Shown piece by piece: positions 47,755 through 49,760 of a DNA stretch of 64,000 bases. Positions within the stretch are counted from its first letter, which is position 1, and the number at the start of each line of letters is the position of its first letter. The translations under genes and the position numbers were made by a program. The stretch comes from Methanobacteriota archaeon (GTDB taxonomy: Archaea > Thermoplasmatota > Poseidoniia > Poseidoniales > Thalassarchaeaceae): positions 129,229 through 193,228 of the forward strand of contig JAOMRN010000001.1 of NCBI GenBank assembly GCA_028355015.1, written 5' to 3'. The notes beneath the pieces were generated by a model. That model was not told the DNA's origin. It made no database searches and saw only the letters and a program-made list of their open reading frames with translations.

Positions 47755-47846
47755 TACGTTACCTCCTTTTCTTCATATTTTTTTCTAGGTCTTGCACCTT
47801 CTCAAATGTCATTAACACGCCAACATTTACACATGTCCTCGTTCAA

Positions 47847-47963
47847 CTATTCCCAGTCTTGAGCTACAAATGCGCCACCAATCATTCCAGTGATTGGTGC
47901 ACAAGTCATTGTGCCCACGACCAAACCAACAGTTCCGCCTACGATCGCTTTTAGCAATCCCAT
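47847..47963 (-). CDS. Glycine-zipper hydrophobic micro-protein A (38 aa), unannotated in the ORF track
   Basis: My translation is MGLLKAIVGGTVGLVVGTMTCAPITGMIGGAFVAQDWE*. The ATG is at 47963-47961, with an AAGGAG Shine-Dalgarno sequence at 47975-47980 (minus-strand sense). It is preceded by a conserved leader repeat. Confidence 0.6.
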   Translation of the reverse strand: MGLLKAIVGGTVGLVVGTMTCAPITGMIGGAFVAQDWE

Positions 47964-47974
47964 AACATATCACG

Positions 47975-48080
47975 CTCCTTGTTTGTGTCGTCTCTGTGCC
48001 CGAGACACGAGCCCTGTTTCCTTTCTAACAGGAAGTCATCGCATTTGCGAATAGAGTGTGTTCGGTCACTCGTCACATCC
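47975..48080 (-). repeat. Leader repeat copy 1 (upstream of micro-protein A)
   Basis: It shares with copy 2 the blocks CTCCTTGT, CTGTGCCCGA, CCCTGTTTCCTTTC.AACAGGAAGTCATCG..TTTGCGAA and ACTCGTCA.AT (plus-strand reading). It contains the hairpin CCTGTT(48013-48018)/AACAGG(48027-48032). Confidence 0.8.
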
Positions 48081-48191
48081 GCCGTCATATCCGTCTATGC
48101 CGTCCCAGTTTCCTGCAAGCAGAATTGGGATTGCTAGCGGTCCAACAACGACCGCTGCAGTGCCTGCAGCTATCCATCTCAATATTCCTAT
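48066..48191 (-). CDS. Glycine-zipper hydrophobic micro-protein B (41 aa), paralog of A, with ATA at the position of A's ATG
   Basis: Translation (I/M)GILRWIAAGTAAVVVGPLAIPILLAGNWDGIDGYDGGCDE* aligns residue for residue with peptide A over the first ~18 aa. AAGGAGGTG lies upstream. The aligned start codon is ATA (48191-48189), and an in-frame TTG lies at 48182-48180. Confidence 0.45.
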   Translation of the reverse strand: MGILRWIAAGTAAVVVGPLAIPILLAGNWDGIDGYDGGCDE

Positions 48192-48199
48192 ATTTTCAC

Positions 48200-48307
48200 C
48201 TCCTTGTGTTATTTCACTTCTGTGCCCGAAGTTCAGGCCCTGTTTCCTTTCCAACAGGAAGTCATCGTGTTTGCGAAAAAAATCACGTCCGATTACTCGT
48301 CATATTT
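48200..48307 (-). repeat. Leader repeat copy 2 (upstream of micro-protein B)
   Basis: The same conserved blocks are offset by 225-227 nt from copy 1. The hairpin arms are identical and the loop differs by one base. Confidence 0.8.
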
Positions 48308-48405
48308 TCTATGTCATTCTGATTATCATCCGGAAAGAAATCCACTAGATTCTCTCCAGCAATTGCTAAGTATGCTAAACGCCATAAAAACTCTTTAATT
48401 CTCAT
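48283..48405 (-). CDS. Possible third micro-ORF (40 aa) overlapping the stop of the membrane-protein gene
   Basis: Translation is MRIKEFLWRLAYLAIAGENLVDFFPDDNQNDIENMTSNRT*. Its 3' end occupies the same position in leader copy 2 that the 3' end of peptide B occupies in leader copy 1. Confidence 0.25.
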   Translation of the reverse strand: MRIKEFLWRLAYLAIAGENLVDFFPDDNQNDIENMTSNRT

Positions 48406-49534
48406 TATGTTCTACCTCATCCTCAACCCAGACAGGGCGATTCATCCATACGAATACGATCAAAATCGTTGCTAATCCAATTACAATAAATGTCGAAAAT
48501 ATTGTACCATCAACAATCCACGCTACTGCTAGAATTGGATTTGAAAATAATCTGCCTTGATTTCTCGAGTATTCTCTAGGGCATCCTTCTAAATTTAATT
48601 TTTCAAACCCCCATTCAACTTCTTTTTTGAGAATCGGGAATAACACGGCTGTACCTCCGGTTATCATTACGATTCCAAAGAACCATGTAGACTCAAATAA
48701 CAACATCAACGCTGAAATAAAGGTTATAATCAAACCAATATTCACAAGAAATCTATCTTCAATTATACGCTCTAATATCCCCGGTACAGCAGCTCCTATC
48801 AATGTAGAGATAGCGATAATTCCTCCAAGCGAAATTATCTCGGGTTGGTCTGAAATCGCTATAGTACCGGTAAGAATAATCACAAGTCGAGAAATAGATA
48901 CACTGTTGTTTAGAAATCCCTCAAGGAACGCCAAGATGGCTGGATACTGAAAAGTATCGACCCACCTAAGATGATTTTTTGCTCTAGTTTCTTTTCCGTC
49001 AGAAATTATATCTTCTTCTCTTGAGATAATTATTAATGCGAATAAAAGGAAACTCAAAGACAGGATCAATAGCAGCCCAGAACCTAACCATTCAACAAAG
49101 AAAGCCGCAGCCATAATCAAGATTATTCCACTTGCTTTCTCAAAGCAATTCCAGAGCTTAAAATTCATATCTGATTGGTGCTGGAGTTTGTAGAAAGCTG
49201 GCCAAAACGAGCCCACATAGAATCCTGAGAAGACGCCTCCACAGAGAATAAAGATCAATTCTTCAAACTGCCATGCACAAATGAAAAATAAGAAAGAAAT
49301 AACTCGTAATTTCACCGAATTACTGATTATATTCCAATTGAAATTAATATTAGAAGCATTCAACAACCCTGATGTTGCAGTAGCCGCAATCAACATTGTA
49401 ATATTTAGAGCAAGCAGTCCTATATCTCCACTTATTTCGTAAGCTAATTTGTACCCCCCTATCGTCCAACCTGCCTTCTCTGCCGCCTGTATAAGCCATC
49501 TAATCCCATATATCTTGATTTTTCTATTATTCAT
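48395..49534 (-). CDS. Polytopic membrane protein (transporter-like, about 10-12 TM helices)
   Basis: 379 aa, almost entirely hydrophobic helices with one central charged loop ('SREEDIISDGKETRAKNH'). This gives an MFS-like two-halves layout, judged from topology only. Confidence 0.45.
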   Translation of the reverse strand: MNNRKIKIYGIRWLIQAAEKAGWTIGGYKLAYEISGDIGLLALNITMLIAATATSGLLNASNINFNWNIISNSVKLRVISFLFFICAWQFEELIFILCGGVFSGFYVGSFWPAFYKLQHQSDMNFKLWNCFEKASGIILIMAAAFFVEWLGSGLLLILSLSFLLFALIIISREEDIISDGKETRAKNHLRWVDTFQYPAILAFLEGFLNNSVSISRLVIILTGTIAISDQPEIISLGGIIAISTLIGAAVPGILERIIEDRFLVNIGLIITFISALMLLFESTWFFGIVMITGGTAVLFPILKKEVEWGFEKLNLEGCPREYSRNQGRLFSNPILAVAWIVDGTIFSTFIVIGLATILIVFVWMNRPVWVEDEVEHNEN

Positions 49535-49535
49535 T

Positions 49536-49760
49536 TCTTCACCTTTTTATTGTATCTATTATGTCATACCTAAATTTATTTTTACACGAAAATAAAACTT
49601 TTTTTCTTATCTTATCTATTATGTAATACCTTAGTTTTTGAAATCTCCGAAGAGAGAATCCTTCTTAAGTCTTTTATTATGTCATACCTAAATTTATTTT
49701 TTAATAATTGATATATTTTTTTCTTTTCATATCTAATATGTATTACCTTTTAATTAAAGT
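49536..49760 (+). repeat. Four direct ~59-bp tandem repeat units in the divergent intergenic region
   Basis: Core (T)ATCTATTATGT(C/A)ATACCT(A/T)A.TTT starts at 49557, 49617, 49675 and 49734 (spacings 60, 58 and 59). Units 1 and 3 share the identical stretch ATTATGTCATACCTAAATTTATTTTT. Each core is preceded by a T-rich/CTT tract. Confidence 0.85.

Follow-up and report, generated by a model that had tools for sequence, protein, structure and literature searches.

The 64,000-nt stretch analysed here (positions 129,229 to 193,228 of contig JAOMRN010000001.1, assembly GCA_028355015.1, from a marine archaeon of the Thalassarchaeaceae, of Marine Group II type; hereafter the window) contains two copies of a repeat, termed the leader below, each directly in front of a micro-ORF (open reading frame). 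A T7-like RNA polymerase (1336 aa; PF00940, E 4.7e-41) is encoded on the plus strand, divergent from an operon on the minus strand that comprises, in order, a 379-aa membrane protein, a 40-aa ORF, leader and pepA, leader and pepB, a 69-aa ubiquitin-like protein (Ubl), a JAB protein, a 74-aa protein, a 254-aa protein and a ThiF/E1 protein. pepA and pepB are tiny membrane-peptide genes that encode different peptides. The leaders and micro-ORFs are arranged as follows, with scores from the covariance model R1 described below.

48195–48294, minus strand: leader copy 2, upstream of pepA (R1 93.7 bits, E 1.2e-18).
48066–48182, minus strand: micro-ORF pepA, downstream of leader copy 2; TTG start at 48182, 38 aa, MRWIAAG...GNWDGIDGYDGGCDE.
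47969–48068, minus strand: leader copy 1, intercistronic, from the pepA stop codon to pepB (R1 97.1 bits, E 2e-19).
47847–47963, minus strand: micro-ORF pepB, downstream of leader copy 1; ATG at 47963, 38 aa, MGLLKAIVGG...AQDWE.

The two copies lie 226 nt apart from start to start, in agreement with the 225–227 nt given by an earlier interpretation made from the DNA letters (the sequence-only reading). All of the identical blocks that it listed (TGACGAGT, TTCGCAAA..CGATGACTTCCTGTT.GAAAGGAAACAGGG, TCGGGCACAG and ACAAGGAG) are present, as is the CCTGTT/AACAGG stem with its 8-nt loop, and a 59-nt core is 85% identical between the copies (47993–48051 versus 48219–48277, plus-strand coordinates). 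A 30-nt core pattern matched these two sites and no others in the window (0 expected from 100 shuffles), and the search elsewhere in the genome that had been proposed returned only these two copies in the 1.5-Mb assembly. The claim that the leader is far more conserved than the coding parts held within the genome, where the leaders are 70% identical and the coding sequences 52.5% (shuffled, 50.6%), and failed between orthologous loci, where conservation is higher in the pepB coding sequence than in its leader (98% versus 78%; 89% versus 66%). The pepA and pepB coding sequences are at the shuffled level because they encode different peptides. The earlier picture was also partial, in that it overlooked a second covarying hairpin, a linker/loop pairing and the place of ACAAGGAG in an extended Shine-Dalgarno (SD) sequence.

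Further leaders were collected with a degenerate pattern built from four copies, which matched 26 metagenome contigs, and then with R1, which was searched over the DNA gathered for this analysis. R1 recovered 48 leaders (78–105 bits), which come from 24 metagenome contigs and the genomes G000 and G110 and include divergent copies that the pattern had missed. All 48 are in gene orientation, lie directly 5′ of pepA or pepB and end 5–17 nt before the start, so that orientation and position relative to the controlled start codon are fixed, as in a structured cis-acting mRNA leader. G110 (Thermoplasmatota archaeon SFB_27D_50_5), a sister genome of the same genus, was found in the genome-collection scan; only these two of 151 family genomes have the leader, each with two copies and none elsewhere in the genome. 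R1 does not recognise the pattern sites in metagenome contigs L026 and L030 or in two other collection genomes (Zixibacteria, Acidobacteria); these four were rejected as chance matches, and their number is about that expected from the information content of the pattern. Family BLAST matches of 20–30 nt (E around 0.02) were treated as noise, a weak R1 match in G007 was rejected as it lies inside a 214-aa coding sequence, and the pattern scan of viral contigs found nothing.

From 5′ to 3′, a leader consists of an optional hairpin P0, the word AUGACUU, hairpin P1 (6–7 bp), a 23-nt module of hairpin P2 and linker, a 9–11-nt CA-rich spacer and a 9–11-nt SD. In the window these parts are found at the following positions.

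48039–48050, minus strand: copy 1, P0, a small variable hairpin UCGC-AAAU-GCGA that abuts AUGACUU (structure prediction).
48033–48038, minus strand: copy 1, single-stranded UGACUU (usually AUGACUU), invariant in all 28–30 distinct leaders.
48013–48032, minus strand: copy 1, P1 hairpin, CCUGUU / AGAAAGGA loop / AACAGG, with compensatory changes.
47990–48012, minus strand: copy 1, candidate H-type pseudoknot, 23 nt (covariation).
48012–48009 with 48001–47998, minus strand: copy 1, helix S1 of the candidate pseudoknot, GCUC with GGGC; L1 is GU (linker/loop covariation).
48006–48002 with 47994–47990, minus strand: copy 1, helix S2 (the same as P2), GUCUC with GAGAC; L3 is ACA (47997–47995).
47969–47989, minus strand: copy 1, CA-rich unstructured spacer GACACAAAC, then extended SD AAGGAGCGUGAU, with the pepB ATG at 47963.
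48239–48264, minus strand: copy 2, UGACUU (48264–48259) and P1, CCUGUU / GGAAAGGA / AACAGG (48258–48239), from the sequence.
48216–48238, minus strand: copy 2, candidate pseudoknot; S1 GCCU (48238–48235) with GGGC (48227–48224), S2 ACUUC (48232–48228) with GAAGU (48220–48216), L3 ACA.
48196–48215, minus strand: copy 2, spacer GAAAUAACAC and SD AAGGAGGUGA, complementary to the 16S 3′ end over 9 nt without a mismatch.

The stems of the leader change in sequence while keeping their pairing. P1 occurs in six versions (CCUGUU/AACAGG, UCUAAAU/AUUUAGA, GCAGGAU/AUCUUGC, GCGAGAU/AUCUUGA, UCUGGAU/AUCCAGG and GCUUGAU/AUCAAGC) below a loop that stays near GAAWAGGA, a conserved 8-nt GA...GGA; the 88% pairing that appears for P1 is an artefact of aligning the 6-bp version. 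P2 likewise has six versions (GUCUC/GAGAC, ACUUC/GAAGU, GCCUC/GAGGC, AUCUC/GAGAU, GCUUC/GAAGC and ACACC/GGUGU), and among 30 distinct sequences it is 100% paired, with compensatory changes at four of its five pairs. Between the two window copies three of the five P2 pairs differ and pairing is kept at all of them. For the combined fold scheme, 94.6% of 444 cells are paired versus 22–46% when the partners are slid, compensatory changes are seen at 10 of 16 pairs, and none of 500 shuffles reached the covariation score. Helices that hold up against both shuffle and slide controls through compensatory substitutions thus stand beside conserved unpaired nucleotides, since AUGACUU, the P1 loop and CGGRYACAG are fixed. 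On the basis of this covariation, the predicted P1 and P2 helices can be regarded as established. G-U wobbles in P1 and in the linker (S1) helix are tolerated on the sense strand only, which places the fold on the mRNA-sense strand.

At the most divergent locus (L033), where pepB keeps 32% of synonymous codons, AUGACUU is identical at 7/7 positions, L1 plus L3 at 4/5 and the SD block at 11/13. Compensatory stem changes and invariant unpaired bases, found next to a gene whose synonymous sites are nearly saturated, support the nucleic-acid-level function for which the sequence-only reading had argued. As judged by sequence comparison, these results demonstrate a sense-strand fold that is under structural and sequence constraint, confined to this operon and independent of the promoter words described below.

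P0 is more variable. It is present in most leaders in five different sequences, with AUGAU/AUCAU, AGAGAU/AUCUUU, GAAGAU/AUCUUC and CUCUA/UAGAG at the site in other leaders, and is absent from the A-rich type-2 leaders; as a conserved part of the predicted fold it is at best a weakly supported candidate. A further predicted hairpin spans the pepA stop codon. Within the pepB coding sequence, 47897–47917 reads GGGCACA-AUGACUU-GUGCAC, in which both leader words are adjacent in a small hairpin, and pepB of L039 has a paired change there (GGGUACA...UGUACAC). This pepB-internal GGGCACA-AUGACUU was considered as a long-range partner and rejected, as the synonymous sites of L033 do not preserve it. A box C/D or H/ACA sRNA, a tRNA-like cloverleaf and a bulge-helix-bulge site were dropped on inspection of the sequence, the required boxes not being conserved across leader types.

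Seven bases of the P2 'loop' are almost invariant (GGRYACA), and its R and Y co-vary with the P1–P2 linker. Four 'loop' bases pair with the linker, GC exchanging with AU at one pair (15/11, 4 exceptions) and CG with UA at the next (26/4). This linker/loop helix is 97% paired, versus 63% or less when slid, and it probably forms. With a fifth pair it excludes P2; without it, the topology is that of an H-type pseudoknot (S1 of 4 bp, L1 of 2 nt, S2 of 5 bp, L3 = ACA), which would account for every base of the P2 'loop' being fixed. In isolation, P2 and the alternative linker/loop hairpin have similar predicted energies, within about 3–5 kcal/mol. The covariation suggests that the 23-nt module is either an H-type pseudoknot or a pair of mutually exclusive alternative hairpins, and the same data fit both.

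On the 3′ side of this module, block ACAAGGAG continues as AAGGAG-N-GUGAU. The 16S rRNA of the genome, which matches the archaeal model, ends ...GGAUCACCUCCU (complement AGGAGGUGAUCC), and copy 1 matches at 10 of 11 positions; because AAGGAG-N-GUGAU complements the genome's own 16S 3′ end, it reads as a 9–11-nt SD. It is mostly predicted to be unpaired (mean 0.63), as is the CA-rich tract that precedes it. No conserved helix sequestering the SD or involving the start codon was found at the level of helix covariation, and an anti-SD helix was rejected; many isolated column pairs correlate merely by descent.

In more distant islands, which retain the polymerase, the Ubl operon and three micro-ORFs, the leader is missing. 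Their micro-ORFs run into one another, either overlapping or abutting at ATGA-type junctions, and a different short word, AATTACTTACCAC, stands in front of them; further pepA-bearing clades are also leader-less. The sequence-only reading had itself named absence of the motif from homologous islands that retain the genes as evidence against its proposal, and this is what the distant islands present. Since such islands keep the genes, the leader is not required by the system: its distribution points to a lineage-specific solution, one that appears to replace translational coupling with independent initiation.

We lean towards reading the repeat as a cis-acting structured mRNA segment, that is, a 5′-untranslated region (5′-UTR) or intercistronic leader placed once before each micro-ORF, that would act as a translational operator/insulator. 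A cis-regulatory leader or regulator binding site had been the fallback of the earlier interpretation and is what the evidence favours. The stems drift while the loops and the single-stranded AUGACUU are frozen, which argues for sequence-specific recognition or tertiary folding and not for a mere physical hairpin; fixed loops and an SD that is never sequestered together favour the operator/insulator model. Mechanistically, the folded module would let each micro-ORF be translated as a separate unit from a strong and exposed ribosome site. Together with the pseudoknot, the invariant loops would then form an operator at which a trans-acting factor, in all likelihood a protein, docks and may tune the translation or stability of the peptide messages, as the pseudoknot and unstructured ribosome-binding site (RBS) of T4 gene 32 do.

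Several points weigh against an operator/insulator. The copies all belong to a single narrow clade in which about six stem lineages can be told apart, and shared descent can make isolated column pairs correlate; under these conditions only consistency at the level of whole helices is meaningful. The S1 helix rests on two informative pairs, with 4 exceptions. The SD is open in every predicted state, with no on/off logic visible in the sequence, and transcription through the leaders, like any 5′ ends there, is something we infer from the DNA. No binding partner was identified, nor any gene specific to leader-bearing islands, and homologous islands work without the leader, so that it is not essential to the system.

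A clearly less probable alternative is that the leader is a passive stabiliser or insulator, in which hairpin and pseudoknot block 5′-to-3′ decay or endonuclease spread and separate the cistrons with no dedicated trans-acting partner. It would then resemble an exonuclease-resistant or 5′ stem-loop stabiliser and give long-lived, independently translated peptide messages. The structures lie on the 5′ side of each micro-ORF and leave the SD open, an extra hairpin spans the pepA stop codon, and leader-less relatives use translational coupling instead, all of which would suit such a role. T7 RNA polymerase is fast and leaves its transcript uncovered by ribosomes, and a fast single-subunit polymerase at this locus would do the same. 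A physical block, however, needs stems and not fixed loops, whereas here it is the stems that drift and AUGACUU, the P1 loop and CGGRYACAG that are invariant.

We think it unlikely that the leader is a riboswitch or other conformational switch, in which P2 and the linker/loop hairpin exclude one another, or a ligand stabilises the pseudoknot, and a small molecule, an ion or temperature shifts the balance. Covariation backs both helices, the isolated energies of the two hairpins lie within the narrow range given above, and the small size and conserved junction bases recall the small H-type pseudoknot riboswitches. Set against this, the leader has no Rfam match even at E up to 10, and no conserved helix with the SD or start codon that would serve as an expression platform; it is restricted to one operon in one clade, which is atypical of metabolite sensors, and no metabolic gene is under its control. 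Equally doubtful is the related proposal that P1 and the pseudoknot module constitute a new archaeal class of sensor RNA, a ligand-, ion- or protein-responsive switch gating production of the membrane micro-proteins.

Endonucleolytic processing, in which intercistronic hairpins or UGACUU mark cleavage by an archaeal nuclease into peptide-sized messages, appears quite improbable. In its favour, the unit is intercistronic, is repeated before each micro-ORF and has an invariant single-stranded hexamer. The T7-style RNase III processing hairpins put forward in the sequence-only reading are contradicted by helix length, as the helices have 4–7 bp (5–7 bp for the P1 and P2 stems) versus about 20 bp for RNase III, and the RNase III domain PF14622 was not found in the genome (84% complete), although a control search finds it in 8 bacterial genomes. 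As for the splicing endonuclease, no bulge-helix-bulge motif is visible.

The remaining proposal of that reading, a DNA-level promoter for the T7-like polymerase in the form of a duplex or an N4-type extruded hairpin, is in our view very improbable. In its favour, the PF00940 polymerase is adjacent, repeated phage-promoter-like words precede the micro-ORFs and the Ubl gene in other clades, ATGAC is common to the leader and an SP6-like word, and ATGACWT is locally enriched. The SP6-like words themselves, however, lie elsewhere.

49555–49748, minus strand: four SP6-like words (T)AGGTATGACATAATAGA in the polymerase/membrane-gene spacer, pointing towards the membrane-protein gene and the micro-ORF operon.

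The SP6 promoter is ATTTAGGTGACACTATAGA, which the words (T)AGGTATGACATAATAGA resemble; three matches at up to 3 mismatches were found, versus 0.15 expected, and none in or near the leaders. These words appear to be better candidates than the leader for the polymerase's promoters. Three polymerase sub-clades (36–67% identity) have three different promoter-like words in this spacer (AGGTATGACATAATAGA; TAAGGTCATAGATA; AACAGTATAGGTGATA), with TAAGGTCATAGATA and AACAGTATAGGTGATA at the same place in sub-clades whose polymerases are only 36–44% identical. The word changes in step with polymerase divergence, which looks like polymerase–promoter co-evolution. Promoter-like words are confined to the spacer, with none near a leader, whereas the leader invariants are the same in all three sub-clades; the sequence of the leader does not track polymerase specificity. 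Its longest invariant run is AUGACUU (7 nt), with flanks that vary or co-vary as RNA stems, and it contains no promoter word of ~17–23 bp (−17 to +6). Nor was a polymerase gene always found together with the leader (G110; type 2, 3 and 5 contigs). G110 has both leaders and the whole Ubl operon, and no PF00940-type polymerase homologue was found in its assembly (80% complete); in six contig types no polymerase or membrane gene lies within 3–5 kb upstream of the leaders. Hairpin promoters of the N4 virion RNA polymerase type extrude on the template strand, with a stem of 5–7 bp and a loop of 3 nt. The leader loops have 7–8 nt, and the G-U wobbles of the sense strand would be A-C mismatches on the template strand, which argues against a template hairpin. 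A promoter role for the neighbouring phage-type polymerase is thus largely refuted, and the leader appears independent of that enzyme's promoter words.

The spacer words occur in 2–4 tandem copies each (window 49555–49748, minus strand; L023 1830–1962; L039 5213–5414), all pointing into the micro-ORF/Ubl operon. On the operon strand, ATGACWT has 7 copies in 1.9 kb (47806–49685, minus), versus about 0.45 expected from the window-wide rate; both leaders and the promoter-like words contain it, as do pepB, the pepB–Ubl spacer and the 3′ end of the 40-aa ORF. Leader-less clades have short clade-specific words, AATTACTTACCAC, AGACTTACCAG and AAAAGGTGGCAAA, directly 5′ of the micro-ORFs and the next gene (L082 3860–3880 and 4245–4268; L101 2955–2970 and 3345–3362; L107 2810–2825, 2968–2983 and 3005–3020), and these may be internal promoters of the single-subunit polymerase.

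Finally, the leaders could be a functionless remnant of a tandem 'leader plus peptide' duplication kept similar by gene conversion, which does occur, as the two leaders of L039 are identical over the P1–P2 region, but neutrality is incompatible with compensatory stems, with unpaired bases that stay invariant when divergence is saturated and with retention on 24 contigs, and covariation refutes this account.

Other features of the operon concern the micro-peptides and their surroundings. A protein search with pepA from L003 as query recovered a wider pepA-like peptide family. Such peptides (...LPNDWDGIDGYDGG-acidic tail) are widespread in marine metagenomes and occur in other operon types (L088–L097), of which one has a pepA-like gene directly 5′ of a CDC48-like AAA ATPase and others have a 409-aa ThiF protein; in every type the pepA-like gene is tightly coupled to its neighbours. 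In the window, the 40-aa ORF (MRIKEFLWRLAYLAIAG...; 48283–48405, minus strand) has no leader and overlaps the end of the 379-aa membrane-protein gene. Its 3′ end reads ...TATGACGAGTAA in another frame, like the CDE-stop end of pepA, and the ORF probably represents a third micro-peptide of this family that has partly decayed. Some loci have an extra insert of ~570 nt between the Ubl and JAB genes (L024 7133–7706; L054 2086–2487), which in G114 codes for a 133-aa protein with MORN-like GxW repeats. In G110, a GC-rich intergenic segment 5′ of the first micro-ORF (L003 950–1160) folds unusually well (−61.5 kcal/mol, z −2.9), has no Rfam match and occupies the place of the polymerase and membrane-protein genes in the window's arrangement.

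Against Rfam 15, no match overlapping the leaders was found in the window at E up to 10, a scan at the gathering threshold finding only two tRNAs, and there was no match in L003 either; a literature search found no paper on such an element or on this gene set. We describe the repeat as a previously uncatalogued, structured cis-acting mRNA leader. To our knowledge, few structured cis-regulatory RNAs have been catalogued for archaea, and none was found described, in Rfam or the literature, for Marine Group II, an abundant and uncultured ocean group, which gives the leader rarity value. It lies at what would be the regulatory choke point of an unusual set, in which a phage-type RNA polymerase encoded on the chromosome is combined with conserved membrane micro-proteins and an operon for ubiquitin-like tagging. 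The analysis separates two layers, with candidate promoters 5′ of the membrane-protein gene and leaders that would act after transcription. If it were a sensor RNA, the leader would join a very small number of riboswitch-like regulators known from archaea, would be the first of them in Marine Group II, and would stand at the start of a ubiquitin-like conjugation operon that a phage-type polymerase transcribes. A narrow distribution and a function known by inference limit its interest, while the archaeal host and the unusual operon raise it. The covariance model and pairing scheme provide a concrete object for probing, reporter assays and pull-downs, and a means of annotating unannotated micro-genes in metagenomes.

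Compared with known systems, the leader would resemble T7, T3 and SP6 promoters in adjoining a PF00940 polymerase; it differs from them in having no conserved 17–23-bp duplex word, in ignoring polymerase divergence and in persisting where no polymerase was found. With the T7 RNase III sites (R0.3, R1.1 and others) it shares hairpins between cistrons in an operon probably read by a phage-type polymerase, but at those sites host RNase III cuts an irregular duplex of ~20 bp, whereas the leader has 5–7-bp stems and conserved loops. The preQ1-I, SAM-II and guanidine-III riboswitches are small H-type pseudoknots, and the Downstream-peptide (glutamine-II) motif is found in front of tiny ORFs of marine microbes. 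The leader is similar to these as a small, putatively pseudoknotted 5′-UTR element immediately 5′ of an SD, and unlike them in that its SD lies outside the pseudoknot, it matches no Rfam family, it has no known ligand or metabolic link and it belongs to one archaeal operon. In five of its six versions the P1 loop reads 5′-GA...GA-3′ directly on the stem (GAAUAGGA, GAAAAUGA, A-GAAAGGA and others), with GAAUAUGG as the exception. A k-loop is laid out in this way, with tandem sheared G-A pairs stacked on the helix. An L7Ae gene is present in the genome (contig 12, 99130–99351), and on inspection of the sequence the P1 loop is a candidate L7Ae k-loop site by resemblance. Archaeal L7Ae has been reported to regulate translation through k-turns in mRNA leaders (PMC5539422, PMC6298567). 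Those are likewise small structured elements in archaeal 5′ leaders, with tandem G-A pairs bound by the protein; P1 differs in having neither a three-nucleotide bulge nor a C-stem. In the T4 gene 32 operator, a 5′ pseudoknot of ~28 nt is followed by an unstructured region with the RBS (PMC535899). The candidate pseudoknot of the leader is shorter (23 nt versus about 28) and has AUGACUU and a further conserved hairpin in front of it, its spacer is CA-rich and not made of UUAAA repeats, and its host is archaeal, with no known autogenous repressor. What the two would have in common is a compact pseudoknot 5′ of an unstructured A-rich RBS tract, intercistronic and specific to one message (PMC535899), from which a similar mechanism can be proposed by analogy.

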